Shown here: in pieces, positions 1-34,038 of the stretch | Position numbering within the stretch: position 1 is the first letter of the stretch | Layout of the letters: every line of letters starts with the position of its first letter | Assembly (NCBI GenBank): GCA_003990765.1 | Contig: RBNJ01000286.1 | Location: 1-34,067 of the forward strand | Source of the DNA: Jimgerdemannia flammicorona | Lineage: Eukaryota | DNA length: 34,067 bases | Reading direction: 5' to 3' | Program-made: the position numbers and the translations under genes | The notes under the pieces: generated by a model | What the model saw: the letters and a program-made list of their open reading frames with translations, nothing else | Told to the model about the DNA's origin: nothing | The model's database searches: none

Positions 1-161
1 AAGAGATAACAAGATAGTTAAAGATAAGAAGTTTGAGGACTATAAGACCTTGGGAAGACACTCCAATAAGAACTTGCTTATAACAAACTTGAGTTAGTCT
101 AAGAGATATATCTTGAAGAGAATCTGGCATATTTGAAGGACTCAGTGACCACTTCGTAACA
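1..161 (+). repeat. 3' part (U5) of the 5' LTR of family A copy 1
   Basis: Near-identical to 7237-7395; ends ...CGTAACA. Confidence 0.93.
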
Positions 162-164
162 ACT

Positions 165-182
165 TGGTACCCATTGGCTGGT
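165..182 (+). promoter_or_regulatory. Primer-binding site (tRNA not identified)
   Basis: TGGTACCCATTGGCTGGT begins 3 nt after the LTR-terminal CA; TGG is complementary to tRNA CCA. Confidence 0.7.
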
Positions 183-287
183 GATTTAAGATGAATCCCT
201 CACTTTTAAGCTGAAAAATGAATAACCCCCACAACAACTACCCTGACTACAAGAGTCACCCCTGCAAGAATTCAAGATAAGATAGAA

Positions 288-3200
288 ATGTGTCCCCTCA
301 CATTCTATGGATATACTACTGAAGAGTCAATCCTGACCTTCATTGAAGACTTTGAACAATTCACTGCCATACAAGCCCTTGATGTGGATGCTCAATTGGC
401 CCTTCTACCAGTCAGCCTCAGAGGACCTGCCAGAGACAAGTTTAATGTAGCCACCATTGCTGGTGCTGATGCAGTCAAACTTACCAATATGAAGACCTTC
501 CTCAGAACAACATATTATACCAAAGAAATCAAGCAAGCTCTCAAGGATCAACTCAATACTATCTGCCAGGGACTTAGTGAAGATCCCAACTCATTCTATA
601 CCCGAATCTGTCACCAGATTGTCTTGGCTGGCTATGATGATGCCCTCAAGAAACAAATAGTGGATTCAACCTTCCTCAAAGGAGTTTACCCTGAAATTGC
701 CCTAGCAATCTGGTCTACTCCAGCTGCACTGACCCTTGATCAGAAAGTGGTCTTTGCACAGAGATATTGGACTGCCAGACACTCTGCCAAACACTCAATG
801 GAGAAAATAACTGGCATCAAGATGGAGCCATCAAAGCCAACTAGTATCTTATCTGCCACAGTTATAAACAGATAACCAACCCCACCTACCCCCAAGATAG
901 CCAAAGCTGACCCAGTGGAAGAACTTGCCAAGCAGTTTGCCAAGATGACTGCACACCTCGGTGATGTTGTTAGAGAAGTCCAAAGTGCCAACAAGAGACC
1001 AGTGCAGATATTTGTAGCTACTACAGAAGAACGCAATATCACATGCTTCAGATGTAGAGAAGAAGGCCACTATGCAAAGAGTTGTATGACCGAAATGAGA
1101 TGCAAAGCCCAACCAAGCAATGCTAGCAGAACCAGAGAACAAACAAATACAGTAGTCATTGAGGAGATTGGTGATACTGATGATGAAGAATACTACGAGG
1201 AGCTCAAAATCTACCCTGCTACTGAAGGTACCAGAACCCGGTCCAAGCCCTATGACAAGAAGAGCAACAGCAAGCCAGTTGGAAGACCAAAGAAGACTCT
1301 AGCTGTCACTATTCAAAGCAAGACCTAACCTGAGGAGATTGATCAAGACATGGAGTTAGATGAAGCTATCTGCCAAATTATCGAAGACACTACTCCAGTC
1401 TTAGGAGAAAGCGAGAGCAAGAAGGAACAGAAGCTGCACAAGACTAAGATCCACCAGTATGACATCTACAAGGACCTCAAGGAACAGAAGGTCAATGCCA
1501 CTTTTGGGCAGCTAGCTGAAGTCCCTGCCTTCAGACAGCAGTTGAGAGTAGGACTTGTAACTACTGCCAAGAATCAAGAGTACAAGATCATAGAAGCTCA
1601 CAATGCACAAGAAGAATCTGAGAACTCAGGTAAAGAATCTGAAGACCAGCACAAGACATCAGCCTATACTCCCTGCCAGATCAAAGACTGTATCTTTGAT
1701 GCCATCATTGATACTGGTGCTGGAGGATGCCTCATGAGCAAGAAGGCAATTGACTGCCTAGGTTGGGACATTGAAGAGTCCACCAAGATGGTCTATGTCA
1801 CAGCAGATGGTACATGAGCTACCCTCCTTGGCAAAATCCAAGAAGTCCCCATCAAGATAGGAGGAGCTACCATCCCAGTAGATATGATTGTTACAAGTAC
1901 CACCAACTATGACATCCTCATTAGCAACCAATGGCTTCACAAGGCCAAGGCCATCATTGACCTTAATGCCCAGAAGATGCAGATCAACTACAGAGAAAGA
2001 AAGGTACAAGTTTCTATCAATGTCCACAAAAGAGTCCTGCCAGATATGGAGGAAGGAGATGAAGAAGACACAGAGGTCTTCATGCACTCAGTGAACAAGA
2101 ACAAGAACAAGACACCCAAGCTCACAGATGAGCAGTAGTATAACAAGATCATCGATAGATATGCCCCTCAAGGAAGATGCCCCCATAGTACTAGAATGTA
2201 CTGCTCTGAACATCTGAATGACTGCTGGTCCTGTATCAGCGAAGTCAGGAAAATCCACCAACAGAAATATGAGCAAGAAGCTGCTGAAACAAAAAGGAAA
2301 GCTGAAGAAGATGACCAGCCCCCAGAGCTTCAAGCTGACAGTGACGATGAGGAGGAACAAGAATCAGACATTACTCTCAAGGTCAAGAAGTTTCACCCTG
2401 AAGCTAAGATCCCAGAATACAAGACTGAAGGAGCCATAGGAATGGACCTTACCAGCATCCAAGATGCTACCCTTGAACCACAGACCACCACCCTACTTGG
2501 CACTGGAATTGGAGTCAAGTTGCCAGAAAACCATGCTGGAATTATCAAGACCAGGAGTAGTCTGGCCAAAAGTGAAATCTCAGTTGAAGGAGGAATAATT
2601 GACCCTGATTACACTGGCGAGATTTTTCTCATAGTCAGAAATTACAGCCACACCACCCCCTTCAAAGTCAAGAAGCATGACAGGATTGGCCAGATGCTGA
2701 TCCACGAAATCAAGAAGCCCAAGATCATAGAAGCCACTGAACTTATCAAGACCAAGAGAGGAGAACAAGGCTTTGGATTTACTGGAAGAGGAGCCTATGC
2801 CACTACCAAGATTACTGAACTTGAGCACAAGAAAGACAAAGACCAGAACAAGCACACATATACCATTGGAGAAAACTTTCCCCTGGAGGAACAACTTCTC
2901 AAGATCCTGTACCAGAATGACGAAGTACTTGCTACAGACTTTAGGGATATCCACAATCAAGAACCCAAGTACTATCATGAAGTTGATACTGGTGATACCA
3001 AGCCTATCTACCAGAAAGCCAGACCTATACCACCTGCCTACAGAGAGTGGCTGTGAGCCAAACTCAAGGAAATGAAAGAAGCTGGAATCATCAAGCAAGC
3101 TATCAGCCCCTGGGCCTCACCCATTGTCCTTGTCCCGAAGAAAGGAAGCAAGTCTGGAGAGTTTGCACCAAGACTCTGCATTGACTACAGGAAACTCAAT

Positions 3201-4307
3201 GCCATCACCAAGAAGGATAGGCAGCCCTTGCCGAATATTCAAGAAATCCTTACTACTCTTGGAAGTGAAGCCAAATACTACACCACCTTGGATCTGTTCT
3301 CAGGCTTCCATCAGATCGGTCTCACTCAAGATACTAGTGAGAAATCAGCATTCATCATACCTGATGCCACCTATATCTATCTACAAATGCCATTTGGAAT
3401 GTGCAATGCCCCAGCAAGTTTCCAGTGAATAATGAACAGAGTCTTTAGCAACAAGATTGGAAAATGGCTCTTTGTCTATGTTGATGATGTGATCATCTTC
3501 AGCAACACTGCACAGGAATATGTCAATCACATACAGCTAGCCCTCAAGAGGCTCAAGGAGTATGGCCTCTACATCAAGCCCAAGAAATATAAGTTTGCAG
3601 CTCAAGAAATCGCCTACCTAGGACACCTTATCAACCAGACTGGAATCCATACAGACCCCATGAAGATCGAGGCTGTTGCAGCCTACCCGAGACCCAGAAC
3701 AACTACAGAAGTCCATGCCTTCCTTGGACTGTCCAGCTACTACAGAAGATTCATCAAAGGATACTCCAATATTACAGCACCTATCTACAAGCTACTGAAG
3801 AAGGAGACCAATTTCGAATAGACCAAGGAGTGCCAAGAAACCTTCAATGAACTCAAGACCAGGTTGACCCAAGCACCCATCCTCAGAAGACCAGACTGGA
3901 ACCTAGAATTCATTCTGCAGACAGATGTGAGTGCTATAGGACTTGGAGCAGTCCTAGCTCAGGAGAAAGATAGACATGAATATGTTATCTCCTATATAAG
4001 CTGAGGTGCCTGCAGAGTGGAACAGAACTACAAGTCATGCAAGCTTGAATACTTAACAGTAGTTTGGGCAGTAGATAAGTTCCACTACTACCTAGCCAGA
4101 AAACACTTCACCATTCAAATGGACCATTCCGCTCTTGCCTAGCTATTCCACACTCTGAACCCTAAAGGAATATATGCCAGATGGATCTACAGGCTGCAAG
4201 AGTATGACTGTACTGTCAAGTACTGCTCAGAAAAGACCAACACTAATGCTGATGTACTCTCAAGGACACCCCAAAACACCCCCATCAAGACTACTCAACA
4301 TGAATAA
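288..4307 (+). pseudogene. gag-protease-dUTPase-RT-RNaseH polyprotein, single frame, broken by in-frame stops
   Basis: ORF pieces at 288, 915, 1350, 1884, 2196, 3072 and 3432 share one frame; stops are explained by CGA>TGA, CAA>TAA, TGG>TAG (e.g. FQ*IMN for FQR). Motifs: CFRCREEGHYAKSC (1044-1085), IIDTGAG (D at 1710), SPWASPIVLVPKK, LDLFSGFHQI, MPFGMCNAP, YVDD (3477-3488), LQTDVS..GLGAVL, DHSAL, NADVLSR. Confidence 0.95.
2376..2789 (+). pseudogene. Trimeric dUTPase domain between protease and RT
   Basis: All five dUTPase motifs: GAIGMDL, RSSLA, GGIIDPDYTGEI, DRIGQM, RGEQGFG(F)TG. Confidence 0.95.
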
Positions 4308-5496
4308 GGAGCTATACTATGGATTAATCAGCTACCTTGGGCAGCAGAAGATGCCCAACCACCTCAAACCCTGGATAATCACCATCATCAACTGGACTTA
4401 GAAATAGTTTGAATTAGACAACACTATACTTAGAAAAGGAGGAAAGCTAGTAATACCTGAACACAAGAAGTATCAAGTAATGAAGGAAGTATATGAGCAA
4501 GGACACTTAGGAGGAACCAACATATATGACAAGGCAAGAAGAACCATGTGGTGGCCCAAGATGGAAGAAGACCTACACCAATTTGTCAAAGAGTATGACA
4601 AGTGCCAAAACAGAAACAAGATCAGTAAGACCAGGCACCTGAATCATCAAGAATTGAGCCTATCCCCTTTCACCACATTGTAATAGATATCATTGGATCA
4701 CTACCAGTAACACTATCAGGAAAACTGCTATATTATAGTTATTGTAGACCTCTTTACCAAATGGATAGAGGCAGGAGCATTACAAGAAGCCAATGCCCTC
4801 TCTATAGCCGACTTCCTATACCGAGAAATCATCTGCTGCTACAAGACACCAAAGCAAATCACAACAGACTGTGGTACAGAATTTGTCAATGGATTCCACA
4901 AGATAATGTATCAGAAATACAGGATCCAGCACATCAAGACCACCACATACCACCCTTAAGGAAATGGACAGACAGAGAGAACCAACAAGACCCTCAAGAA
5001 CATTCTAGCAAAGATCTCAGAGACATATGAGAATTGGGATAACTATCTTCCAACTGCCCTCTCTGTTCTATGAGACATATGGTCACAGAGTATACATTTT
5101 ACCCCAAGAGAGCTGCTCTTTGGAGAAGAAGATTCTGATGGAACCTCAGCCACAAATCTAGACCTAACTTGGAGATGGGTTGATGCAGAAATCCGGAAAC
5201 TATACCAAATCAGGAAGAAGGCTGAAGATTACATCACTAAGTTACAAGTGCTGACAAGGAAGAATATGGAAAAGAATCACAAGACCCTAGAACCCATCCG
5301 AATTGGAGAAAAGATTCTACTGTATTAAAATATGGTAGAAGTCTCATGGTCATGAAAACTGGAGCCCAAATGGGAAGGACCCTTCTACATGCAAGATATC
5401 AAGAGAACTATCTTCTGGCTAAGAAAAATCTCAGAGACCATACTGTCTACTATGGTATATAGGAACAGACTCAAGAAGTACCACAAACCTATATAA
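4300..5496 (+). pseudogene. Integrase in its own reading frame (Zn finger, DDE core, GPF motif)
   Basis: ATG at 4300 overlaps the pol stop (ATGAATAA). GHLGG...WWPKM...(C)DKCQ, IDIIG.LP, VDLFTKWIEA, TDCGTEF, TTYHP*GNGQTERTNKTLK, LEPKWEGPF, RNRLKKY. Compensating -1/+1 A-run indels near 4607 and 4722. Confidence 0.92.
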
Positions 5497-5508
5497 GAGA
5501 AGCAAAAT

Positions 5509-5826
5509 ATGATGACCACCTGCAAGGTTCTAGTCCGTGAATCGTAACAGCATGTCCTGTGACCAGAAGGCTATCTGCCTAGACCATTCTCTAAGGGATA
5601 CAGCACTGGCAACTACTCATCCATAAGACTTTTGAAGTCAGAGGAGTTCAAACCATTAACTGATTGGTCAAGATCAGAATCAGGCCCTTACTCTATATGA
5701 AGGGAGTGACCCTTCACCATCATGCCAAAATACAAAGAGAAGACACTAGCCCATAAACATCAGTTTTCAACCCCTTGCTAGAGGTTATGGGATCAGCAAA
5801 TTTTTCAAGACTGGACCAATGAATAA
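5509..5826 (+). pseudogene. Possible small accessory ORF or integrase C-terminal extension, unknown function
   Basis: In frame with integrase; five internal stops, all transition-type; ends at the pre-PPT hairpin; segment also present in copy 2 (~28965-29285). Confidence 0.4.
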
Positions 5827-5860
5827 GGATGCTCAGGAAGATCCTTATTCAGGAGGAAGA
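5820..5860 (+). promoter_or_regulatory. Stem-loop plus polypurine tract of family A
   Basis: TGAATAAGGAT-N10-ATCCTTATTCA perfect 11-bp stem; AGGAGGAAGA immediately before TGTAAT. Confidence 0.8.
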
Positions 5861-6102
5861 TGTAATGGTGATCCCAGAATGATGACATCAGCACTGGAGA
5901 CAGCCTTTCCTTGCAAGCCACCAGATCAGAGCACAAGAAGATCATACAGCATATGAGATGAGCAATAATGACCAACTGTGAGTCATTGTGACCATAGTAC
6001 AAGTATTCTGAAGAATATAAAAGAACAATCAAGGAACCACAGTAGCAGCAACCAATAAGAACCACTAATCCCAAAATAGCTCAAAGACTTACCATAAACA
6101 AA

Positions 6103-6936
6103 ATGCCTGCTGCTCACCAAACCTCAAGGTCAAGGAATCACCAAGGTATCTCAGTTGAGAAAAGGATGTTCCAAGACATCAGAAGAGCCATGAGGACCCA
6201 CTCAAAAAGGACTCCTAGTGTCAACCTGGGTACTGCAGACTCTTATCACTTCATTCTCTACTACCGTGAAATGGAAACAAGAATCACTATTGCCACCAAA
6301 TACCTCCAAATGTGACAGGAGTATGAAATAGGAAACCTCCTCTGCTGGGAGTTCCCACAAGCCAGCACCCAAGAGCTACAAGATACCACTTCTATGGATA
6401 TATGTGAAATAAGGACAGCTAAGAAGATCTATCAGATCTTCAGGCATGCACCATGGTCAATCCCCAACTTAGAGTATGTTAGAGTCTCAGACTTCAGAGA
6501 CCTATCATCCTGCCATATCAACATACTAGAAGCCAGGGTGGCTACAGAAGCCCAGTCCACTATCACTCTCAACAGTGAAGAAGTAGAAGACTTCTGGCAC
6601 TCTATCCTTCAGGACAACCCAGACCAATTTCTGCAAAGATTGATCTCAGTATTCCAAGGCCCAAGCATCCAGGTTAGACCTCCCCAAGACCCCACATTTG
6701 TTCCCTATTTTGTAGAAGAAAACCTCATAGACTGGAGAGCTCCAGATTTTGTTCCCGATTTTCCCACCACAGCCGAATGTGATGACATCATCAACGATGA
6801 CATTATCCCGCACAACATCGACATATGTGAGATATATAATGAAGTATGTGAAAATGATGAATTTGCGGATCTCATCTCCTTCAGTGATGATGATGATGAG
6901 GATAAAGCTCCCATAGTCCTGAACTTTCTGCTCTAA
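6103..6936 (+). pseudogene. LTR(U3)-encoded ~277-aa protein of unknown function with acidic tail; one internal TGA
   Basis: ORFs 6103-6315 and 6394-6936 are in frame and joined across a single TGA (probably CGA); homologous remnant at 27830-28676; motif shared with 14084-14491. Confidence 0.72.
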
Positions 6937-6944
6937 GTTCTGTA

Positions 6945-7075
6945 TTACACTGGATAATGCTAGCACCAGTATTCTCATGTAATACTAGATAATGCCAGCA
7001 CCAGTATTCTGAGGTGATGCGAAATTGTTCCAGTATTGGCATTTTGATGTGACACTAAATAATGCCAGCCCTGGA
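6945..7075 (+). repeat. ~35-bp tandem repeats in LTR U3
   Basis: ACTRGATAATGCYAGCACCAGTATTCT twice at period 35, plus a third partial copy near 7053. Confidence 0.75.
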
Positions 7076-7432
7076 ACTTAGTAGTTTTAGTTATTGGAAT
7101 TTATATTTAGCTTTATATCTTAGCAACCATTGAATTATATTTTGTATAAATACCCCTCTTATTTCTTCTGAAATAAAGTCAGTCAATTCAGTATATTCAG
7201 TCAAGTGTAATATACATACTTCCTTGCAAGCCATCTAAGAGATAACAAGATAGTTAAAGATAAGAAGTTTGAGGACTATAAGACCTTGGGAAGGTACTCC
7301 AATAAGAACTTGCTTATAACAACTTGAGTTAGTCTAAGAGATATACTTGAAGAGAATCTGGTATATTTGAAGGACTCAGTGACTACTATGTGACAATATA
7401 TATATATATACTATTTTATATTTTAGTCTTAC

Positions 7433-8244
7433 TATAATTATTCTAGTTTCTTTAAGAGAAAGTAACAAAATCTAAAAAGTTCTAGTAGATCTAAAGAGAT
7501 ACTTATAAATTTAAGTAGTTTTATAGAATTTCTAAAAAAAAATAAGCTAAGCTTTATTTTAAGTAGTACTTCCAAATAAATCAAATTAATTTGAATTAAA
7601 TTAAATTAAGAGTCATTCAAATCAAATTCAAATTGAATTGAGTTCCAATTGAAATATTTATCCCAAATTCAAAATATAATAACTCAATAGAAATATATTT
7701 AAATTTAATATCCTTTATTATACTAGATTCTCTATTATAAGATATATTTAATAAGCTAAAATTCATTAAATTTAGATATATTTTGATTGAGTTATTGAAT
7801 TTTGAAAAATTTGATTTGAATTGAACTTCAAATTGAATTAGATTGAATCAAATTAACCCTTAATTTGTTTTGAATATTTCAAATTAGAAGTAAATTCAAT
7901 TCAATTTATTTCAAGTACTAATTCTAAGTAAAGAAAGAGAATATTTATATAGAATCTGAAAGAAGGATCCAGAAGGATCTTAGAAATAAAAAGAAAAGTC
8001 AAGAAAATAGTTCTCAGCAAAGATGATTAATTGAATTCTACAATGTTCCAAAAGGTTCTATAATTAGTTAAGATAAGATACTTAGTACTAAGAAAAGACA
8101 TGGATGTTCTAATAAAGTCTTAATACCAAGAGAGAATTTCTAAGCATTTGAGAGATACTGGAACATTGTGGAATATTTAAGAAAAGATAACAAAAGACTA
8201 GTGAAAAGATTTAAAAAATATACTATGATTAAGAAATTATTGCA
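7433..8244 (-). mobile_element. Solo LTR related to family C, interrupted by a MITE
   Basis: Similar to LTRs 16566-17029 and 22164-22617; 5-bp TSD CTTAC (7428-7432)/CTCAC (8245-8249). Confidence 0.88.
7564..7920. mobile_element. MITE, hAT-type
   Basis: TIRs TAGTACTT..AAATAAAT / ATTTATTTCAAGTACTA; 8-bp TSD ATTTTAAG/ATTCTAAG; second copy at 12182-12491. Confidence 0.85.
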
Positions 8245-8249
8245 CTCAC

Positions 8250-8414
8250 TCTGGTAGTCTGATAATAAGATCTTCAGACAGATATCATCTTTGAGCTCAC
8301 CTGTGACTGATTCTGAGGAGTTAAGAAGATCAAAAAATTGCTACTAACTCTGGGAGTCAAGAAAAGATAAAGAAATCTGATGTACTTTTCAAGTTATGCA
8401 TCCACTACATTACA
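8250..8414 (+). repeat. 3' fragment of a family B-like LTR
   Basis: AAGATAAAGAAATCTGATGTACTTT...CCACTACATTACA matches the family B LTR end (consensus CCGCTACGTTACA). Confidence 0.75.
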
Positions 8415-14083: not shown

Positions 14084-14491
14084 CTACATGACTGTCTCCC
14101 AATGATGTCTTCTCACTTTCTCGAAGTTGGTAGGGGTTACTCCTCTCAGGTGGTCTATCGCTGCTTCATCTTCTTGGAATAACTTGTGGATCCTTTTGGC
14201 AATAGTGATCTGTGAGTGGGATAGTTGACACTCGGTAATCCAGTCCTCCTTGGTCTTTGCTGGATCCTGATTGAGCATCTGTCCAAGCTTGAAGTACTCT
14301 TGGAATTCTGCTCGATATTGATAGGCTCTAAAGTGCGAGATCCAAGAGAGATGAGTCTGCACAATACTCTGAATATCCTCATAGAATAGCTCTATAGTCG
14401 GAGGCTCGGTAGTGTGCCATTGTCTTTCGATGGCTCTTTGGGCAGCACTAGTGATCTTGAGTGCCATCGCAGTACTTTTGTTACTGGCCAT
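14084..14491 (-). CDS. Family B accessory ORF downstream of integrase (135 aa; ancestrally probably ~20 aa longer), unknown function
   Basis: Open frame whose ATG overlaps the integrase stop (ATGGCCAGTAA); motif similarity to the family A LTR ORF. Confidence 0.72.
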   Translation of the reverse strand: MASNKSTAMALKITSAAQRAIERQWHTTEPPTIELFYEDIQSIVQTHLSWISHFRAYQYRAEFQEYFKLGQMLNQDPAKTKEDWITECQLSHSQITIAKRIHKLFQEDEAAIDHLRGVTPTNFEKVRRHHWETVM

Positions 14492-15674
14492 GGTATTTCT
14501 TGAGTTGGTTTCGGTGAATGGTGGTGGGGATTATTGTGTCTGAGGGTTTTTGTAGCCAAAAGGTGGTTCCTTTTATATCTTGTACAAGGTAAGGTCCTTC
14601 CCACTTGGGCTCCAGTTTTTGTGACCATGAAGCTTCTACTATGTTCCGATATACCAGGACTTTGTCTTCTATCTTGATAATCTCTAAGGATTTGTGGGTC
14701 TTTTCCACATTCCTCCATTGTAGTGTCTGCGCCTTCGTTATGTAATCCTCAGCCTTCTTCCTGATTTGGTGTAGTCTCTGTATTTCTATGTCCATATGTT
14801 TCCATACAGCATCTCCATTGGATGATAAGGTTCCCTGAGAACATTCTTCTCCGAACAGCATTTCTCGAGGGGTAAAGTGGGTACTTTGTGATCGGATATC
14901 CCGGAGAACAGATAATGCTATTGGTAGATAGTGATCCCAGTTCTCGTAGCTATCACAGATCTTGGTGATAACATTCTTGAGGGTCTTGTTGGTCCTTTCT
15001 ACTTGTCCATTTCCTTGAGGGTGATAGGCTGTAGTCTGAATGTGCTGGATCTTATACTTCTTGTAGAGAACTTCGAAGAACTGGTTCACGAATTCAGTTC
15101 CTCTATCTGTAGTTACTTGTGTTGGGGTCTTGAACCGGTAGATGATTTTCTTGTGGAAGAAATCAGCAATTGACTGTGCATTGGCTTCCATAAGGGGTCC
15201 CGCTTCTATCTACTTCGTAAAAAGGTCTACGATGACAATGATGTATCGGTTGCCAGTTAAAGTCAAGGGTAGGGGGCCAATTACATCTATTGCAATATGG
15301 GTGAATGGTACTGGTTCTATGTGTGCTGATCCTGGGGCTTGATTTCGTTGGTCTTATTTCTGTTTCTGGCATTTGTCACAGGTCTTGATGAATTGTCTGA
15401 TATCTTCCTCCATCCCTGGCCACCATATTGTTCTTCTTGCCTTGTCATATATATTTGTTCCTCCTAGATGGCCAAGTTTATATACTGATTTCATTGCTTG
15501 CTCCTTCTTATGTTCTGGTATAACTAGTAGTTTTCCTTTCTTCAGTGTTTCTCCGTCAGTTTTGAATTGTTTCCATGTTCTGTTGATAATCGTTTATGTC
15601 CATTCTTCCAGATGTTGGGGCATCTTTCGCTGTCCCAGGTATGTGATGATTCCATAGTAGAGCTCTTTATTCAT
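14481..15674 (-). pseudogene. Family B integrase, separate ORF (398 codons, a few stops)
   Basis: MNKELYYGIITYLG start; GHLGG, CDKCQ, TDRGTEF, TAYHPQGNGQVERTNKTLK, LEPKWEGPY. Confidence 0.93.
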
Positions 15675-16004
15675 GATTGATTTGTTGGTTGGAGGTAGTT
15701 CGAGGTGTCCATGAGAGAGCATCTGCATTGGAATTTGTTCTTCCAGGGTGGTGTACAATGGTTATGTCATAGGCTTGTAACTTCATTATCCATCTGGCAT
15801 AGATTCCCTTGGGTTGTCCAGTTGTCAGTAGCCAGGTGAGAGCTGAGTGGTCCGTCTGGATGGTGAAGTGTCTTCTGGCCAGATAGTAGTGGAACTTTTC
15901 CACAGCCCAGATGACTGCAAGGTATTCCAACTTGTAGGACTCATATTCTTTTTCAGCCCCTTGGGTTCCGTGGCTAAGATATACAATGATATACTCTTTT
16001 TTGT
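15667..16004 (-). pseudogene. Family B RNase H C-terminal part
   Basis: LEYLAVIWAVEKF, TDHSAL, ARWIMKLQ, NADALS; ends ...NHE*. Confidence 0.92.
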
Positions 16005-16565
16005 CTTACTTTACTCAGGCTTACTGTAACTTATTTCATTTCAGCCTCACTCCTTACTCATGCTTACCCCTCTAGAGTCTGTAGATGTTTTTTAATTTTA
16101 ATTTAGATTTGTTTTGTTTATATTTATTTGTAATTTTTATTCTGCAACTGGGATTGATTCTCTCTTTATCTCTGCTTATGTATCTCTAGCAGTCATATGA
16201 TTCCTAATTCAGATATCTCTATATTGTGACATATCTTCCCTTTTGGGATATTGTATTTTATATATAAGGACTATACTTTTATATAGCAATAAATGGTTGA
16301 TGCATTTTTAGTTATGTTCTTTATTTGTCTCCCTTATATATACCTTTTTATATGTATGTCTTCTATCTACTTTGATCATGGCTCTGAGTTTATTTCCCTG
16401 ACTTCTGCTAGGCCTTCTTTCTCTACTGCTATTCTGCCTGTTCTTGAGACTTCTGTCTCTGCTGATGAAGTCATGGACAAGATTTTTTCTCTTTCTTCTC
16501 TCTCTGTTATTGTCCCTGCCACTGTCTTATTTAAGACTTATATCTTGTCTACTGTTCTCTATCTT

Positions 16566-17029
16566 TATAATGGTTCTAGTTTCTTTAAGAGGAAGTAGCT
16601 AAATCTGGAAGTTCTGATTGACTTAAAGTAGCTCAAAGAGATACTTAAAGGTTCAAGTATTCTTGAAGGATTTCTGAAAGAAAATATTCTGAGCTTTATT
16701 TAGGCAGAGAATAAGGATATTTATACAGGATCTGAAAAAAAGATCTGGAAGGATCTTGAAAAGAAAGAGAAATACCAAGAAATAGATTCTCAATAAAGTT
16801 GACTAATACTATTCTACAATGTTCCAAAAGGTTCCATAACTAGCTAAGACAAGATGCTTAGTACTAAGGAAAGACAAGAATGTTCTGGTGGTGTCTGGGC
16901 ACCAAAAGAAGGTTTCTAAGCAAGTAGAAGGTGATGGAATATAGTAGAATATTCAAGAAATAACAAGAAAAGACTAACTAAAAGATACAAAAATATATCA
17001 AGACTAAATATGACTGTGAAATTGTTATA
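16566..17029 (-). repeat. 3' LTR of family C
   Basis: Direct repeat of 22164-22617; adjacent to the PPT. Confidence 0.92.
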
Positions 17030-17329
17030 TCTCTCTCTCCTTAAGAACCAATGTCCTCATTGAGTTCTTAGATAATATAAGACTAGATATACTTAACTAA
17101 AATTTCTCAAACTTGAATTAGTATATTGGTGGGGATTAACCATTCTTATATAGAGTAGAGGGCCTATTATCAGACTAACTAACTGGGAGGGGTTCAAACC
17201 TAGCTAGTAGCTTCATTTCAGTAGACTTCTTGTTTATTAAATATTCTACTAGTTCTGGGGTTCCAAAGTAAACTTCTAATGCATAAGGTACTGGTCATTG
17301 CCATAGGTCATTGACAATCCAAGAAAGTT

Positions 17330-22163: not shown

Positions 22164-22617
22164 TGTAACAGTTCTAGTTTCTTTAAGAGGAAGCAGCTAA
22201 ATCTGGAAGTTCTGGTTGGTCTAAAGTAACTTAAAGAGATACTTAAAGGTTCAAGTATTCTTGAAGAATTTCTGGGAGAAAATATTCTGAGCTTTATTCA
22301 GGCAGAGAACAAGAATATTTATACAGGACCTAAAAGAAAGATCCAGAAGGATCTTGAAAAGAAAGAGAAATGCCAAGAAATAGATTCTCAGCAAAGCTGA
22401 CTAATACTATTTTACAATGTTCCATAATTAGCTAAGACAAGATACTTGGTGCCAAGGAAAGACAAGAATGTTCTGGTGATATCTGGGTGCTGAGAGAAGG
22501 TTTCTAATCAAGTAGAAGGTGACAGAACATAGTAGAATATTCAAGAAATGACAAGAAAAGACTAACTAAAAGATGCAAAAATATACTAAGACTAAATATA
22601 ACTGTGAAATTATTACA
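22164..22617 (-). repeat. 5' LTR of family C
   Basis: TGTAAC...TTACA termini; direct repeat of 16566-17029. Confidence 0.92.
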
Positions 22618-23585
22618 CTCTCTCTCTAGATCTTCATTCTTCTATCATCCACTCCTCTCCCAGTTCCAGTCAGTCCTTATCCTCTCCCTCAAGAAGGCTT
22701 GTCTCTGCTGAGACATCAATGCTATCACACTGCCTGCTGTTCATTTCTCTGTTCTCCCCAAGGCCTACTGCCAAGTTCTCTCTGAGGAAATCTGTACTAC
22801 CTCTGTTGCCACTAAGGTTGCTGCTGCTGATGCTGCCACTATAGCTACTATCACTGCCTCCACCTCCTTTCAATATACTTATGCCTCTTTTATAGCCCTT
22901 GCCTCCTCTTGTCTTCTGGATGCTACCTCTTTCTGTGGCTTTGACATCTATAACATTCTCTCTGCCACTACTGATATTGATGCTGTCCATTATTTCCTCC
23001 TCACTGATATCTCATTTGTTGCTCATCTTTATAAGTAAGAAATATCACATACTGTTACTGCTACTTGTGCTGCCACTACTGCTTCTGCCCCTATCTCCTC
23101 TGAGGTTTTAGTCTCTAAGGTTATTTACACTGAGGCTTACACTACCACCTATACTAAAGTCTGTTCCTTCACCACTACTACTACCACCACCAAGGCCCCT
23201 GCCAAGACCCCCACTAAGCCAAATAAGGCTTCATTGGCCTCTTTCTGGTTGCTCTTCCCTGCTAAGAACTCTATCTTAGTCCCCTCTACCCCTAAGTGCA
23301 ACTGCACTCTGGGCACTTACTCTGCTGGAGCTTGGCCTTGCACTGTCTGCTCTGGTCACCTCCACTATACCTACTGGTATCTGGTTAAGTTGGTTTGCCC
23401 TCATGGTGGTGTCTCTCATCCTGCAGCTCCTTCTGCTGCTTGCTCTCTCTCTGTCTCCTCTGCTGGGTCCTTCTTCTCCTCCTCCACTCATGCCCCCAAA
23501 TGCAAGAGTTATACAAAAGCCTGTGGCTGCAAGGTCTGATACTCTGATGGGGTATACTTTCATTTATCAGACTCACCACCTTTAA
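22618..23585 (+). pseudogene. Penelope-like element ORF1 remnant (continues from ~16356-16565)
   Basis: Long, nearly open Ala/Thr/Ser-rich frame with a Cys/His cluster (CNC...CTVCSGHLH...CPH), upstream of the RT. Confidence 0.5.
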
Positions 23586-25708: not shown

Positions 25709-26129
25709 CTCACTTTGCTCAGGCTTACTGTGACTTACTCTATTTCAGTCTCACCTCACTCATACTCACCCCTCTAGAGTCTGCAGATGTTTTTTAATCT
25801 TAATTTGGATTTGTTTTATTTGTATTTATTTGTGATTTTTATTCTATAACTAGGATTAGCTCTCTCTTTATCTCTACTTATCTCTAGCAATCATATAGTT
25901 CCTAATTTAATTACTCTTATATTATGACATGTCTTCTCTTTTGAGATATCATATTTTATATATAAGGATCATGCTTTTGCATAGCAATAAATAGCTGATG
26001 TATTTTTAGTTATATTCTTTATTTATCCTCCTTATATATATATACTTTTCCACATATCTTCTATCTGCTTTGATCATGGCTTTAGGTTCATTCTCCTGAT
26101 TCCTACTGGGCCTTCTTTCTCCACTTCTA
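25709..26129 (+). repeat. 3' pseudo-LTR / partial tandem copy of the PLE 5' end
   Basis: Direct repeat of 16005-16430 that includes the ORF1 start region. Confidence 0.88.
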
Positions 26130-27332
26130 GTTTAATTAATAATATATCTAAGATAGAAGATTTTGACTTTTGTACATTTGTATTTCTTAATATAATAGTT
26201 CTAGTTTCTTTAAGATAAAGTGACTAAATCTGAAAATATTTAGGTAGGCCTAAAGTAACTTAAAGAGATACTTATAGATTCAAGAGGTCTTGAAGAATTT
26301 TTAGAGAAAATAAGCTATCTTTTATTTAAGCAAAAGATAGAGTATTTATATAGATCTGAAAGAAGAATCTGGAAAAATCTTAAAAATAAAGAGAAATTCT
26401 AAGAAATAGGTTTTTAGTAAAGGTGGCTAATAAATTCTACAATATTCTAAAAGGTTCTATAACTAGCTAAGATAAGGTACTTAGTACTAAAAGAAGATAA
26501 GAATATTTTAGTAAAGTTTTGATACTAAGAGAGGATTTCTAAGTATTTGGAAGATACTAGAATATTGTAGAATATTTAAGAAAAGACAAAAAAAGTATAG
26601 AGAAAAAGATACAAAAATAGACTATAACTAAGAAATACTAAAAAATTATTATACTTAAACTTAATAAATAGATTATATTCTTACAATTTTTTCAGAATTT
26701 GCAAAATATAATATCGATATTTCTTGACTATTTTACTAAAGATAATAATATCATCTATATATACTATTATTTACTCTTTTATCATTTACTAGAAACTTAC
26801 TAAAATATTATATATTCTGAATAGTATTTATAGATAGATATAGATTTTATCTAGAGTGATAAAGATTGATCTGATAGAATCCTGAGTAGAGTTTCAGAAT
26901 AATATAGTATCTTCTTATATGACTAGAATGTTACTGATGAGAGGCAGAGACTGGTAGTTCTTCTTAATTACTTCATTGAGCTTTCTGTAGTCTGTATAGA
27001 GTCTTGATGTAAATTTTCCTAGCTTGTTTCCTTTCTTTAAGACTAGTATAATTAATAATAACTATGAGTAATAGTTTTCTTAATAATACTAGCTTCCTCT
27101 ATCTGCTTAATCTTCTCTTTGAGTTATATATATATATAATATACTAGTGATATTGATTTTATCTTCTGATAAATTAACTTAGTATTTTCTATATTAATAT
27201 TATACTAGTAATATAGTATCTTTCTCTTAATATTCTTAAAATCTGTAATAAGGATATCTTTAAATTTATAAAGTAGCTTCTTGAGTTTCTCCTTGAGTAG
27301 AAATTTATTTCTAATAGTATAACTATACTTGT
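26130..27332 (-). pseudogene. Very degraded family A/B-type Gypsy RT fragment, interrupted by a solo LTR and by family A copy 2
   Basis: Minus-strand VYIDDIIIFS (~26735-26764), RLYTDYRKLNEVIKK, KKYK..KIFYLRYII; colinear with 2850-3635. Confidence 0.8.
26191..26653 (-). mobile_element. Solo LTR related to family C
   Basis: Similar to family C LTRs and 7433-8244; perfect 5-bp TSD CTTAA (26186-26190, 26654-26658). Confidence 0.9.
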
Positions 27333-28932
27333 TATCACATAGTGAGCACTAAGTTCTCCAAGTATATCAGATTCTCTTCAAGGTATATCTCTTAGACCAA
27401 CTACAAGTTTCTTATAAGCAAGTTCTATTGGAGTGCCTTTCCAAGATCTTATAGTCCTCAAACTTCTTATCTTTAAACTATTCTGTTGTCTCTTGGATTT
27501 GCTTACTTGAAATTGAGAAGAGGACTGGAACTTCTATACTTCTGAGTAGTTGGGTGCTTGAATGCTTAAGTGTTTGAATACTGACTTTATTTCAAAAAAA
27601 AAAATGAGAGGAGTATTTATACAAAATATAATTCAATAGTTGCTAACTTATAAAACTAAATATAGATCCTAATAATTAAATAAAATATTTAAATACAGAA
27701 AACTTCAGGTTGTAAGTATAAATTCAAATATCTATATAATTAGTTATATAAGATCAGAATGCTAGAATAATTTCTAATAATTATATAAGATCAGAATGCT
27801 AGAATAATTTTAATAGTTATACAAATAACTTAGAGCAAAATATTCAGAACTCTGGAGACTTTGTCTTTATCACTATTATTAAGACCAAAGGTCAGAATAT
27901 CTTCAAAAGAGATGAGGTTAGCAAATATTTCTATAAGCATCTTGTCCATTTCACATATTTTGCATATTTTGTATATATTGATTAGTGGAATAATATCATT
28001 GCCAATGACATTATTATATTTGGTAATGATAGAAGAAGTAAAGAGATCAAAGGCTCTCTAATCTATGATATTTTTCTCTACAAAGTAGAGAATAAAGATG
28101 GGATCTTAAGGGAATTAAATCTGAATACTAGGGTCTTGAAATATTAAGATTAATCCTTATAGAAATTGATCTGGACTATTCTTGAGGATGAGATTCCAGA
28201 ACTCTTCTACCTTATCACTTTTGAGAGTGATGGTGGATTGGACTTCTGTAGCCACCATAGTCTCTAGTATATCTATATGGTAGGCTGATAATTTCTTAAA
28301 GTCTGAGACTCTGGTATACTCTAAGTTGGATATATCTGAAGATCTGATAGATCTTTTTGACTACTCTCAATTCATGTACATCTATAGAGGTAGCATCTTG
28401 TATTTCTTGGAGACTGGTCTGAGGGAATTTCTGATAAAGGAGATTTCTTATTTTATATTCCTACCACATCCAGAGATATTCAGTAGCAGTAGTGATCCTT
28501 GTCTCCATTTTACAGCAGTAGAGAATAAAGTGATAAGGGTCATTAATACTCAGGTTAAGGTTAGAAATCCTTTTGGTGTAGGTCCTCATAGCTCTCCTGA
28601 TATCTTGGAATATTCTCTCTTAGACTGAGAATCCTTGGTAACTCCTGGACCTTGAGATTTGGTAAGTGGCAGATATTTGTTTATAGTGAGTCTTTTGAAC
28701 TATTTTAGGATTTTGTAAGTCTTGTTTAAGTTGCTATTGCTGTGGTTTCTTGGTCCTTCTTATATTCCTTAAGATGTCTATCTTGTGGTCATTATGACTT
28801 ATAGTTGTCATCATTGCTCATCTTGTAGCCTGGGTGAGTTATACTATATAATCTTCTCATACTCGAATCTGATAGCTTATAAGGAAAGACTGTCTCTTGT
28901 AATGATGTCACTATTCTAAGATCTCCATTACA
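27333..28932 (-). repeat. 3' LTR of family A copy 2 (~1600 bp)
   Basis: Same PPT-TGTAAT junction and U5 end as copy 1; different 37-bp tandem repeat at ~27744-27820. Confidence 0.78.
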
Positions 28933-31900
28933 TCTTCCTTCTGAATAAAGATCTTCTCTTAAATGTCCTTATTTATTGGTCTAGTTTGAAAATTTTTCTG
29001 ATCCTATAACCTCTAGCAGGGGGTTGAAAAGTAGTATTTATAGGCTAGTATCTTTCTTATATATTTTGACATGATGGTGAAGGGTCACTCCCTTTATATA
29101 GAGCAAGGATCTGATTCTGATCTTGACTAATCAGTTAATAGTTTGAACTTCTCTAGCTATGAAAGTCTTATAGATGAGTAGTTACTAGTACCATATCTCT
29201 TAGAGAATGGTTCAGACAGATTACCTGCTAGTTACAGGATATACTATTATGATTCATGAACTAGAATCTCATAGGCAGTCATTATATTTTGCTTCTTTTA
29301 TATAGGTTCATAATACTTCTTGAGTCTGTTCCTGTATACTATAGTAGGCAATATAGTCCCTGAGAGTTTTCTAAGCCAGAAGATAGTTCTCTTGATATCT
29401 TATACATAAAAGAGTTCTTCTCATTTGGGCTCCAGTTTTTGTAATCATAAGGCTTCTACCATATTTCAATATAGTAGAACTTTTTCTTTAATTTAAATGA
29501 GTTTTAGGGTCTTATAATTCTTTTCTGTATTCTTCCTTATTAGTACTTATGACTTGATGATGTAATCTTCTACCTTCTTCCTGATTTGATATAGTCTCCA
29601 GATTTCTGAGTCAATCCATCACCAAGTTAAGTCTAGATTTGTGACTAAGATTTCATCAGAATCTTCTTCTTCAAAGAGCAGTTCTTTTGAGATAAAGTAT
29701 GTACTCTGTGAATATATATCTCATAGGACAGAGAGGGCAGTTAGAAGGTAGTTATCCCAATTCTCATATATATCTGAGATCTTGGTCAGGATATTCTTGA
29801 GGGTCTTATTAGTTCTTTCTATTTATCTATTTTCTTAAGAGTAATATGCAGTAGTCTTGATATGCTAAATCTTATATTTCTGATATATTATCTCATAGAA
29901 TCTATTGACAAATTCTATGCTGTAGTCTATGGTGATTTGTCTTGGTATCTTATAGTAGTAGATGATTTCTTAGTACAGAAAGTCAGTAATAGAGAGAGTA
30001 TTGACTTCTTATAATACTCTTGCTTCTATCTATTTGATAAAGAGATCTATAATAACTATAATGTAGCAGTTTTTTGATAGAGTTAATGATAGTGGTCCAA
30101 TGATATCTATTGTAATATAGTAGAAGAGGATAGGTTTTATTCTTGATGATCTGAGAATCTGGTCCTGTTGATCTTATTTCTATTTTTAGCACTTATTATA
30201 CTCTTTGACAAATTGGCATAGGTCTTCTTCTATCTTAGACCACTATATAGTTCTTCTTACCTTATTGTATATATTGATTCCTCTTAAGTATTCTTATTTA
30301 TATACTTCCTTCATTACTTGATACTTCTTATATTTAGATATAATGAGCTTTTCTCCTTTTCTGAATATATAGTATTATCTAGTTTGAATTGTTTCTAAGT
30401 CCAGCTAATGATAGTAATAGTCTAGGGTTTGAGATAGTTGGATATCTTCTACTGTCTAAGATAGCTGATTAATCCATAGTATAGCTTCTTATTTATGTTG
30501 AATAGTCTTAATGGGGGTATTTCAGAGTATTTTTGAAAGTACATCAGTATTGACATTGGTTTTTTCTGAGTAATGTTTGATAGTATAGTTATAATCTTAT
30601 AGTCTATAGATCCATCTGACATATATTTCTTTGGAGTTCAGAGTGTGGAATAGCCAGGCAAGAGCAGAATGGTCTGTTTGAATAGTGAAGTATTTCTCAG
30701 CTAGGTAATAATGAAACTTGTCTACTGCTTAGACTACTGCTAAGTATTTAAGCTTATATAACTTGTAGTTCTGTTCTACTCTATATATACCTTGGCTTGC
30801 ATAGGAGATAATATATTCATGTCCATCTTTCTTCTGAGCTAGTACTGCTCTAAGTCCTATAGTACTTACATCTATCTATAGGATGAACTCTAGATTCTGA
30901 TCTGATCTTCTGAGAATAGGTGCTTGGATCAATCTGGTCTTAAGTTCATTGAAGATTTCTTGATATTTCTTAGTCTATTCAAATTTTATCTCCTTCTTCA
31001 GTAGCTTATAGATAGATACTGCAATATTGAAGTATCCTTTGATGAATATTCTATAGTAGGAGACCAGTCAGGAGAAGACATAGACTTCTGTAGTTATTTG
31101 GGATCTTAGGTAGACTGCAATAGTCTCAATCTTTATAGAGTTCATATGAATTCCAGTCTCGTTGATGATACATATGTCCTAGATAGGTGATTTTCTGAAC
31201 TACAAACTTATACTTCTTGAGCTTAATGTAGAGGCCATACTTCTTGAACTTCTTGAGAGCTAGCTGTATATATTTGATATATTTCTGTATAGTATTACTG
31301 AAGATAATTACATTATCAATATAGATAAAGAGCTAATTTTCAATTTCATTATAGAAGACTCTATTAAAAACTTACTAGAGTATTATACATTCCAAATAAT
31401 ATTTGCAGATAGATATAGATAGTGTCAGATATGATGAAGGCTGATTTCTTACTAGTGTCTTAAGTGAGACCAATCTGATAGAAGTCTGAGAATAGATCTA
31501 AGGTGGTATAGTATTTGGCTTTACTTCTAAGAATGATAAGAATTTCTTGAATATTTGATAAGAGCTGTCTATCTTTCTTGGTAATTATATTGAGCTTTCT
31601 ATAATCAATACAGAGTCTTGGGGCAAACTCTCTAGGCTTGCTTCCTTTCTTTGGGATAAGAACAATAGGTGAAGCCCAGGAGCTGATAGCTTACTTAATA
31701 ATACTAGCTTCTTTTATTTCCTTGAGTTCTGCTTGCAGCTATTCTCTGTAGACAGGTGATATAGGTCTGGCTTTCTGATAGATGGGCTTAATATCAATAG
31801 TGTCAACTTTATAATAGTATTTGAGTTCTTGGTTGTAGATGTCTCTGAAGTCTGTAGCAAGTATTCCTTTATTCTAGTATAGGATCTTGAAAAGTTATTC

Positions 31901-34038
31901 TTCTAGGGAAAATTTTTCTCCAATAGTATATATGTATTTATTCTGGTCCTTATCTTTCTTGTGCTCAAGTTCAGCAATCTTAATAGCAGTATAGGCTCAT
32001 CTTCTAGTAGATCTAAAGCCTTGTTCTCCTCTCTTAGTCTTGATAAGTTCAATGGCTTCAGTAATCTTAGGCTTCTTAACTTCATGGATCAGCATCTGGT
32101 CAATCCTGTCATACTTCTTGACTTCAAATGGGGTGGTGGGGTTGTGATTTCTGACTATAAGAAAGATCTCACTAATGTAATCAGGATCAATGACTCCTCC
32201 TTCAACTGAGATTTCACTCTTGGCCAGACTGCTCTTGGTCTTGATAATTCTGGTATAGTTCTTTGGTAACTTGACTCTAGTTCCAGTTCCAAGTAGAGTG
32301 GTGGTCTGTGGTTTAAGAATAGCATCTTAGATACTGGTAAAATCTATTTCTATAGCTCCTTTAGTCTTGTATTCTGGGATCTTGGCTTTGGGGTAAAACT
32401 TCTTGACCTTGAGAGTAATGTCTGGTTTTTATTCCTCCTCATCATTGCTATTAGCTTGAAGCTCTGGAGGCTAGTCATTTTCTTTGGCTTTCTTTTTTGC
32501 TTCAGCAGCTTCTTGCTTGTATCTTTGTTGATAGACTTTTCTAACTTCACTAATATAGGACCAATAGTTATTTAGATATTTAGAGTAGTATATCTTTACA
32601 CTATAGGGATATCTTCCTTAAGAGAATAGCTATCAATAATCTTATTGTACTACTGCTCATCTGTGAGCTTAGTTGTCTTGCTCTTATTCTTATACACTGA
32701 GTGTATGAAGACTTTTATGTCCTCTTCATCTCCTTTCTCTATGTCTGGTAATACTTCTTTATAGACATTGATAGAGACTTATACCTTTCTTCCTCTATAA
32801 TTGATCTATATCTTCTAGATATTGAGATCAATGATAGCCTTGGTCTTATGAAGTCATTGGTTACCAATAAAGATATTATAGTTGGTAGCACTTGTAATTA
32901 TCACATCTACTGAGATAGTAGCTCCTTCAATCTTGATGAGGACTTATTAGATCTTGCTTAGGAGAGTAGCTTATATACCATCTGCTGTAATATAGACCAT
33001 TTTGGTGGATTCTTTGATGTCCCAGCCTAGGCAATCAATTGCCTTCTTGCTCATAAGACATTCTCTAGTACTAATATCAATAATAATATCAAATATATAA
33101 TTTTTAATCTAATATTATATATAGGCTGAGATATTATACTGATCTTCAGATTCTTTACCTAAGTCTTCTTGTTCATCTTCTTATATATTGTGAGCTTCTA
33201 TAATCTTGTACTCTTAGTTCTTGACAGTAGTTACAAGTCCTGCTCTCAACTGCTGTCTGAAGGCAGAGACTTCTACTAGTTGTCCAAAAGTAGTAGTGAT
33301 CTTCTGTTCCTTAAGATCATTGAAAATATCATACTGGTGGACTTTGGTCTTATATAGCTTCTGTTCTTTCTTGCTTTTACTTTCTCCTGAGACTGGAGTA
33401 GTATCTTCAATAATTTGGCAGATAGCTTTATCTAACTCTATGTTTTAATCAATCTTCTCAGATTGGATCTTGTTTTGAATAATAATGGTTGGGGTCTTTT
33501 TTGGTCTTCCAACTAGCTTACTATTGTCCTTCTTATTATAGGACTTAGACTGGGTTTTGATATCTTCAGTAATAGGGTAAAATTCAGACTTCTTATAGTA
33601 TTTTTCTTTATCAGTGTCACCAATCTCCTTGATAACTACAGCATTGGTTTATTCTCTAGTTCTGGTAGCATCACTTAGTTGGACTCTGTGTCTTGTTTTG
33701 GTCATACAATTCTTTGCATAGTAGTCTTCTTCTCTATATTTGAAGTATATAATAGTACATTCCTCTATAGTAGCTATAAACTTCTGTACTGGTCTCCTGT
33801 TGACACTTTGTACTTCTCTAACAATATCACCAAGGTGTACAGTCATCTTGGTAAATTACTGGGCAAGTTCCTCTACTGGGTCAGCTTTGGCCATCTTGGG
33901 AGTAGGTGGGAATGATTGTCTATTAAAAGCTATAGTGAGTATGATACTAGTTAGCTTTGGTGGCTCTATCTTGATACATACTAGTTATTCTTTCCATCAA
34001 GTATTCAGTAAGATGTCTGGTAGTCCAATATCTCTGTA
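27333..34038 (-). mobile_element. Family A copy 2 (sub-family variant), truncated in gag, more heavily mutated
   Basis: Reverse complement is colinear with ~757-7395: pol to 30489, integrase 29298-30496, PPT 28933-28942, LTR 27333-28932 with ORF remnant 27830-28676. Confidence 0.95.

Follow-up and report, generated by a model that had tools for sequence, protein, structure and literature searches.

The 34,067-nucleotide stretch of Jimgerdemannia flammicorona DNA analysed here (contig RBNJ01000286.1 of assembly GCA_003990765.1, hereafter the window) is made up of nested Ty3/gypsy long terminal repeat (LTR) retrotransposons. Two families in it, A and B, form part of a deep clade of such elements, in which the integrase is encoded outside the Pol polyprotein, by an open reading frame (ORF) of its own that begins in another frame within a few bases of the pol stop codon. 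The description of these elements as Ty3/gypsy type with a stop-start layout comes from sequence comparison, which gives it good support. The integrase of this clade is probably translated by coupled termination-reinitiation, as judged from the way in which the stop and the start have stayed together while the bases around them have changed.

The junction is best described in copy A1 of family A (1-7396, forward strand), the 5′ LTR of which is cut at the window edge. In A1, Gag, protease, dUTPase, reverse transcriptase (RT), and RNase H are encoded in a single frame (222..4307, forward strand, from translation and Pfam matches) with a terminal TAA at 4305-4307. The integrase ATG at 4300-4302 precedes this stop codon, and both codons are contained in the octamer ATGAATAA (4300..4307, forward strand). 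The 9-mer CATGAATAA at 4299-4307 is read as CAT GAA TAA in the pol frame, and the frame that starts with the ATG at 4300, which is +1 to that of pol, is read as MNKELYYGLISYLG, encoding MNKELYYG. The same 9-mer is found in copy B at 15667..15675 on the reverse strand (ATG 15674-15672, TAA 15669-15667). In copy A2, the corresponding site at 30489..30497, also on the reverse strand, reads CATAAATAA; the pol stop has been kept and the start codon has been lost through a G-to-A transition that turned ATG into ATA. In all three copies, the RNase H frame ends with TAA and the integrase frame is +1 and opens five bases upstream. The last residues of Pol differ between the families (...TPIKTTQHE* in A1 versus ...TSNQQINHE* in B).

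An earlier note, made from the sequence alone, had placed a stop/start overlap at these positions, and the A1 TAA and ATG with its MNKELYYG reading, the identical 9-mer in B behind differing residues, and the mutated ATA form in A2 have all been confirmed. Its picture of three copies in two families holds in that the junctions align, with no gap across the junction in a 287-column alignment whose sole internal gap is a 2-base insertion in A2 ~130 nt downstream. The same picture has to be qualified because all three copies are decayed and B is only a 5′-truncated fragment. Within the window, the 9-mer is about as common as expected by chance (21 matches with at most one mismatch versus 18 expected), and the junctions therefore draw their weight only from their homologous position and not from the motif. 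A second ATGAATAA lies at 218-225, just 5′ of the gag frame (first ATG at 288), and is treated as a coincidence given this chance frequency. Contigs from four sequencing runs (at least 80% likeness) span the A1 junction, and no indel is listed for them between 3753 and 4605. One contig joint, from run X2, skips 4187-4299; it was discounted as a single, weakly supported joint with a depth of 3.45, a side of 23, non-canonical ends, and 80% likeness. This joint would leave the frames unfused in any case, as the pol frame reaches a TGA directly after it.

The architecture of A1 is that of a Ty3/gypsy element up to the end of RNase H. Its gag-pol frame has nine internal stops resulting from decay. 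The Pfam domains, numbered in residues of the frame from position 222, are zf-CCHC (274-289), protease (479-589), dUTPase between protease and RT (727-855; PF00692, E = 5e-27; 2400..2786, forward strand), RVT_1 (972-1135), and RNase H (3822..4205, forward strand; RT_RNaseH_2 at 1201-1298 and RT_RNaseH at 1225-1328). RNase H is the final Pfam domain of the frame, and 34 codons separate residue 1328 from the stop codon, codon 1362. The decayed integrase ORF extends over 4300..5547 (forward strand), its 3′ end having been inferred from P0004, the closest intact relative, and consists of a 51-residue N-terminal leader followed by H2C2 (residues 52-107) and rve (residues 139-219) Pfam domains. The coding region is enclosed by LTRs. 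The 5′ LTR is represented by its 3′ part only (1..161, forward strand), with a 94% match between 1-162 and 7237-7396. The 3′ LTR is located at 7086..7396 (forward strand, approximate start), where 7086-7415 also matches the A2 LTR at 27680-27313; the LTR is thus common to A1 and A2. Both A1 LTR copies terminate in ...CTCAGTGAC...ACA. The order protease-RT-RNase H-integrase, with H2C2 and rve, has been recovered by Pfam on P0001, P0002, and P0003. A usual Ty3/gypsy feature that is absent, also from the intact relatives, is an integrase contained in the Pol polyprotein and released by the protease.

The relatives of these decayed copies show that the split is a property of intact elements. The closest proteins on the pol side, at 44–50% identity, are metagenome ORFs including P0279 (1499 aa), P0283 (1507 aa), and P0289 (1483 aa). 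In each of these three, the Gag Met is followed by CCHC, protease, dUTPase, RT, and RNase H, and neither rve nor H2C2 is present. The closest pol-side proteins end 15–35 residues past an ADALSR motif, and the C-terminus of P0279, ...KYNHE, resembles the ...TQHE and ...INHE of the window copies. Proteins from named genomes (arthropods, fish, frogs, and plants) are more distant, at 33–42% identity, and the majority include a fused integrase domain. At the locus level, the gag-pol ORF of L002 has at least 1577 codons and reaches the start of its contig without closing; its TGA shares bases with the ATG of an intact integrase of 418 codons. The gag-pol ORFs of L005 and L003 are 1651 and 1281 codons long, and intact integrase ORFs are also present in L004, L007, L008, L010, and L018. 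Conservation extends up to the junction on the pol side (...ERLPKGPPWTETY* in L007, ...ERLPKGPAWRETY in P0288) and from the junction onward on the integrase side (MNxELYY). The earlier claims that the integrase is a stand-alone ORF and that the split is not a decay indel are borne out by these relatives, whose pol-side proteins lack integrase and whose intact gag-pol and integrase ORFs keep the layout; the refuting condition set in the earlier note, youngest intact copies with a continuous RNase H-integrase frame or an overlap that is not conserved, is thereby answered in the note's favour.

The junction has been compared over 80 metagenome loci, 52 of which have an RNase H match upstream of the integrase match, with both on one strand. 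In 35 of these 52 loci the two lie in one frame, and in the other 17 their frames differ; in 10 of the 17 the pol stop adjoins the integrase ATG. The overlap takes the form ATGA in L002, L011, and L018, TAATG in L007 and L010, TGATCATG in L008, ATGAATAA in L003, ATGAATAG in L004, ATGGATCTAG in L005, and ATGAACACTGA in L006. The distance from the ATG to the pol stop is accordingly +5 in A1, B, L003, and L004, +1 in L002, L011, and L018, -2 in L007 and L010, -5 in L008, +7 in L005, and +8 in L006. When A1 and B are counted together with 13 of the 17 different-frame loci, 12 of the 15 split junctions with a homologous start Met are adjacent (-5 to +8 nt). The integrase frame is +1 of pol in five of the 12 (A1, B, L003, L004, and L006) and -1 in the other seven. 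The four different-frame loci left out of this count (L034, L059, L073, and L077) have no Met leader and were rejected as split loci, being taken as decayed fused copies; three of them fall among fused relatives in the integrase tree, and in L077, which is outside the tree, the integrase frame reads through ...NADALSR. L012, with only 42 nt of upstream sequence, was excluded from the assessment. The conservation of the overlap that the earlier note had claimed thus stands for the closeness of stop and start across the clade, while the exact octamer ATGAATAA is limited to one subclade (A1, B, and L003, with ATGAATAG in L004).

A quick maximum-likelihood tree of the integrases, rooted at the midpoint, places 11 of the 12 overlap junctions in a clade of 15 members (Shimodaira–Hasegawa-like approximate likelihood ratio test support of 99), the other four members of which have too little upstream DNA to show their junction. 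The family is present in contigs of many soil metagenome runs, and the clade is abundant in soil metagenomes and scarcely represented among named protein records. The nearest stand-alone integrase clusters of the Atlas are mostly from Mucoromycota, then Rotifera; the host lineage of the clade is possibly Mucoromycota, a lead that comes from the Atlas clusters alone. A scan of viral contigs returned six distant loci at 25–32% identity, none of them usable.

The start Met of the integrase is a fixed point of the protein family. With the copy B integrase as the query, 193 proteins were obtained in the searched size range (237–756 aa), and 120 of them were listed. Most of these 120 are stand-alone integrase ORFs of ~405–435 residues from metagenome assemblies, at 39–50% identity to the query. 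In a MAFFT alignment of the 120 listed matches, the start-Met column holds M in all 102 sequences that have a residue there, the other 18 being N-terminally shorter; this count must be marked down as support for a dedicated start, since called ORFs always begin at a start codon and it is partly built in, while the constancy of the position is not. Ninety-seven of the 102 begin exactly at this Met, and five extend upstream yet retain it. The second residue is N or D in 95/102 (N in 59, D in 36), and is followed by a conserved x-E/D-L-Y-Y-G/D-L motif. In an exhaustive representative search, the stand-alone integrases align with residue 1 of the query from their own residue 1, and for most fused polyproteins the match starts no earlier than about residue 45, at the beginning of the zinc finger. 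The leader sequence ELYYGLISYL aligns with the linker motif PWYADIANYL of fused relatives. By this alignment, the 51-residue leader is homologous to the RNase H-integrase linker of fused elements, which would put the start Met near the point at which the protease usually releases integrase.

Based on these observations, the following course of translation is proposed. One long ORF encodes Gag, protease, dUTPase, RT, and RNase H, and the same genomic RNA carries the integrase as its second cistron. Ribosomes would read the entire gag-pol ORF and terminate at the pol stop, and some 40S subunits would remain on the RNA and restart at the integrase AUG a few bases to either side of it. The integrase would then be made in cis, as a free protein, and at a fixed and lower ratio to Gag-Pol. 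Neither a frameshift nor a readthrough step separates gag from pol in these elements. Since Gag and Pol share one ORF, the border of RNase H and integrase would be the sole translational step at which a ratio is set. Termination-reinitiation is favoured because the spacing of stop and start stays between -5 and +8 nt although the bases change, the offset may be +1 or -1, and the Met does not vary. A stop and an AUG a few nucleotides apart and out of frame, as this mechanism demands, are present at all 12 junctions, and their adjacency has been kept through seven overlap forms in 12 of the 15 split junctions.

Several observations weigh against such coupling or restrict how general it can be. 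A sister group (L020, L026, and L024) has an MN-x-EEY start and spacers of 95, 281, and 374 nt between stop and ATG; these spacer loci form their own clade with a support of 100. Three further loci (L021, L022, and L028) have an integrase ORF with a Met-Asn/Asp start and no RNase H within 450–730 nt upstream. The spacer and lone loci may reflect a different expression of integrase or a different gene arrangement, and relatives can evidently express integrase without adjacency, so that coupling is not universal. The pairing of L018, which has the overlap, with the fused L027 implies that the history of the trait is not a single clean gain. Restart systems known so far follow upstream ORFs of roughly 250–770 codons, as opposed to ~1360–1650 codons here. 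No cis element of the TURBS (ribosome-binding site upstream of termination) or pseudoknot kind that the junctions share has been found. In the subclade of the window copies, there is no significant structure upstream of the ATG (z from -1.6 to +2.2, with fold z-scores taken from mononucleotide shuffles). A strong two-stem hairpin with a 3′ AC bulge is present in L007 (1795-1835) and L010 (413-453), ending 5–6 nt before TAATG, and is missing from L008 and L011.

For the 100 nt upstream of the ATG, the folding energy is -23.7 kcal/mol in L007 (shuffle z -1.9) and -27.1 kcal/mol in L010 (shuffle z -3.8), and the hairpin stems of the two loci differ by compensatory changes. Apart from these two loci, the shuffle z-scores are unremarkable. 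RNAalifold returned no consensus structure for four junctions of the TAATG/ATGA subclade. Downstream of the start, fold z-scores range from -2.3 to +1.3, and only L010 is below -2. The last 60 nt before the ATG have a lower G content than the preceding 540 nt in 11 of the 12 junctions and are often C-rich; in A1, G makes up 0.10 of 4240-4299 versus 0.20 of the preceding 540 nt.

The strongest competitor, although still unlikely, is an integrase mRNA of its own, either a spliced subgenomic RNA, as in the case of retroviral env and foamy-virus pol, or the product of an internal promoter, with the closeness of stop and start reflecting nothing but compact coding. An invariant start Met fits any mechanism of initiation, the spacer loci L020, L024, and L026 and the lone ORFs L021, L022, and L028 must express integrase without adjacency, and the G-poor, C-rich tract before the ATG (11/12) can be read as a pyrimidine tract. 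However, a separate mRNA leaves unexplained why 12 of 15 stops lie within -5 to +8 nt despite changing sequence and offset, and no conserved acceptor is found beside the start, copy B lacking any AG dinucleotide within the 45 nt that precede its ATG. Internal ribosome entry at the same tract, independent of termination at the pol stop, would likewise suit the spacer-type relatives and is compatible with the tract before the AUG being unstructured and G-poor; the adjacency to the stop would then be needless, and no conserved structure has been found, which makes this route quite improbable. Because of the spacer-type and lone integrase loci, a separate mRNA and internal entry have been left with a small but appreciable share of the probability when taken together.

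A programmed frameshift close to the stop of pol, in the +1 direction for the window copies, would give a Pol-integrase fusion to be cleaved later by the protease. A +1 shift at the gag-pol border is classic for Ty1 and Ty3, and in A1 the integrase frame remains open over the 141 nt that precede its ATG. In L018, L004, L002, and L011, however, this frame is open for just 6–39 nt upstream, and the shift would have to be +1 at five junctions and -1 at seven within one clade. A shift at the stop would also skip the Met-Asn codons, yet Met is found in 102 of 102 and N or D in 95 of 102 of the listed matches with residues there. A fixed direction, a conserved site, and an AUG-free fusion, the marks of a frameshift site, are therefore not what the junctions display, and no shared slippery site is visible in their sequences, for which no formal scan was made. 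A frameshift is thus very improbable, and the programmed +1 shift, one of the three mechanisms suggested in the earlier note beside a subgenomic RNA and the now favoured termination-reinitiation, is disfavoured by the -1 offset in seven of 12 junctions and the invariant Met. Even less credit can be given to a dead-end defect, that is, an indel inherited by non-functional copies that serves no expression strategy. All three window copies are indeed riddled with stops, but intact ORFs in the same layout occur in relatives with 40–55% identical integrases, and the split was in place during a wide diversification of the clade. Leaky scanning does not seem credible over a distance of more than 1300 codons, and a frame-bridging intron is excluded, as both proteins are conserved right up to the junction.

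Termination-reinitiation at this position has partial parallels in other elements. The window families resemble canonical Ty3/gypsy elements (Metaviridae) in their LTRs, CCHC Gag, order of protease, RT, RNase H, and integrase, and H2C2 and rve integrase domains, and differ from them in an integrase that lies outside the Pol polyprotein, with its own invariant Met in a different frame. The dUTPase between protease and RT is shared with dUTPase-bearing elements of basidiomycetes, Tuber, and bdelloid rotifers. In the accessible sections of two papers (PMC5408684, PMC2864245), such a dUTPase is described for rotifer elements and for Postia, a basidiomycete; the fungal elements carry Gag and Pol either in a single ORF or in two, the rotifer elements have gag, pol, and ORF3, and a separate integrase ORF is not mentioned for either group in these sections.

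The overlaps ATGA and UAAUG are those named for restart in caliciviruses, influenza B, and the hypovirus CHV1 in the accessible parts of PMC10275272 and PMC2699510, where the victorivirus HvV190S (AUGA) appears as another restart system in a fungus. Caliciviruses, influenza B M1/BM2, CHV1 (UAAUG), and HvV190S (AUGA) have in common with the present junctions that the ORFs are out of frame and that the bases of stop and start are shared or nearly so, and by the same sources two of these viral systems operate in fungi. Unlike them, the present elements are LTR retroelements with an upstream ORF of ~1360–1650 codons and a downstream product that is an enzyme normally freed by proteolysis, and the TURBS-like or pseudoknot elements of the viral systems have no counterpart identified at these junctions. 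Among retrotransposons, a 2023 review (PMC10275272) names, in its accessible text, SART1 alone as a user of restart. In this non-LTR element of Bombyx, ORF1 and ORF2 are coupled by UAAUG (Kojima et al. 2005, cited in PMC10275272), and the restart is stated in the same text to require downstream structure (PMC10275272). SART1 is thus similar to the present case as a retrotransposon with stop-start coupling for a downstream cistron on the full-length RNA. It differs as a LINE-type element coupled at ORF1/ORF2, whereas here the coupling would be inside the usual pol, between RNase H and integrase, where a downstream structure is not evident.

The proposed restart is also comparable to the +1 frameshift of Ty1 and Ty3 and to the -1 frameshift or readthrough of retroviruses in being a translational step that sets the ratios of the proteome. 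Recoding at the gag/pol border yields fusions, unlike the control point proposed here, which is the border of RNase H and integrase and for which the predicted product is free and Met-started; recoding between gag and pol in LTR elements was reportedly covered by Gao et al. in 2003. In the literature covered, which includes few subscription journals, no report of a separate integrase ORF or of stop-start coupling in LTR retrotransposons was found. On balance, we are inclined to regard this clade as the first of LTR retroelements with a free integrase made by termination-reinitiation, with the ratio step at the RNase H/integrase border and an upstream ORF among the longest that permit restart.

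In retroviruses and LTR retrotransposons, integrase is delivered into particles as part of Gag-Pol. If the proposed mechanism is true, the integrase of this clade must enter particles or reach the cDNA untethered from Gag-Pol, and the suggestion of the earlier note that a separately made integrase would need its own route into particles is a reasonable one. A large natural clade that splits integrase from Pol therefore bears on how free integrase finds the particle or the cDNA and on the quantity of integrase that is needed compared with RT and Gag. The short list of eukaryotic stop-start systems would also gain an LTR retroelement, probably a fungal one, and the seven natural variants of the junction (ATGA, TAATG, ATGAATAA, and others) are available for comparison. 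In annotation pipelines that expect a fused Pol, such elements would be called broken or their integrase would be missed.

Further ORFs are found downstream of the integrase. A third conserved ORF, always +1 to the integrase, overlaps its 3′ end by ~30–450 nt in the window (14572-14114, reverse strand) and in L007 (3012-3782), L008 (2403-3119), L010 (1597-2271), L002 (5951-6652), and L005 (7154-7639). Its identity across subclades is 27–30%, and its ATGs are not consistently beside the integrase stop. Family A has a 233-codon ORF with an acidic tail between the integrase and the 3′ LTR (6316-7017, forward strand, in A1; 28460-27752, reverse strand, in A2). It is common to A1 and A2, with 46–56% protein identity, and has neither a Pfam match nor a match to ORF3 of the metagenome loci.

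The remaining parts of the window are more fragmentary. Copy A2 (28053..34037, reverse strand) is a heavily mutated member of family A with 80% identity to A1. Copy B, of the second family (14379..16005, reverse strand; 5′-truncated; tblastn frames -3 and -1), retains the final 112 residues of the RNase H region together with an integrase of 397 codons that has three internal stops. Several copies of a repeat of ~450–1000 bp, 72–88% identical, are located around copy B (16005-17038, 22166-22627, 25709-26655, and 7930-8252) and probably represent solo LTRs or pieces of another element by which B was cut at its 5′ end. At ~21206-17619 on the reverse strand lies a Tf2-like gypsy element, distant and decayed, which has matches to RT, RNase H, integrase, and SH3_Tf2-1 and a dUTPase-like stretch; in contrast to families A and B, its RT and integrase matches are in one frame. 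The other larger ORFs of the window have no Pfam match.

All copies in the window are decayed, with ~17 stops in the A1 integrase frame, and the frames are interrupted by TAA, TAG, and TGA. A variant genetic code was considered and rejected, since table 6 leaves the TGA breaks and the presence of all three stop types in frame indicates decay. The differences between copies are mostly transitions, and the internal stops fall at positions where the relatives carry W, Q, or R. The decay is dominated by C-to-T and G-to-A transitions, which have turned Q, W, and R codons into TAA, TAG, and TGA; for example, the TAG at 4399-4401 of A1 is TGG in nearly all related contigs. The G+C content is 32–35% around A2 versus 42–45% around A1, in an AT-rich window background. 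This pattern resembles repeat-induced point mutation or the deamination of methylated repeats. Compared with most related contigs, A1 also lacks one base after 4606 and has one surplus base near 4721, as a result of which ~38 codons of its integrase (4606-4721) are out of frame.

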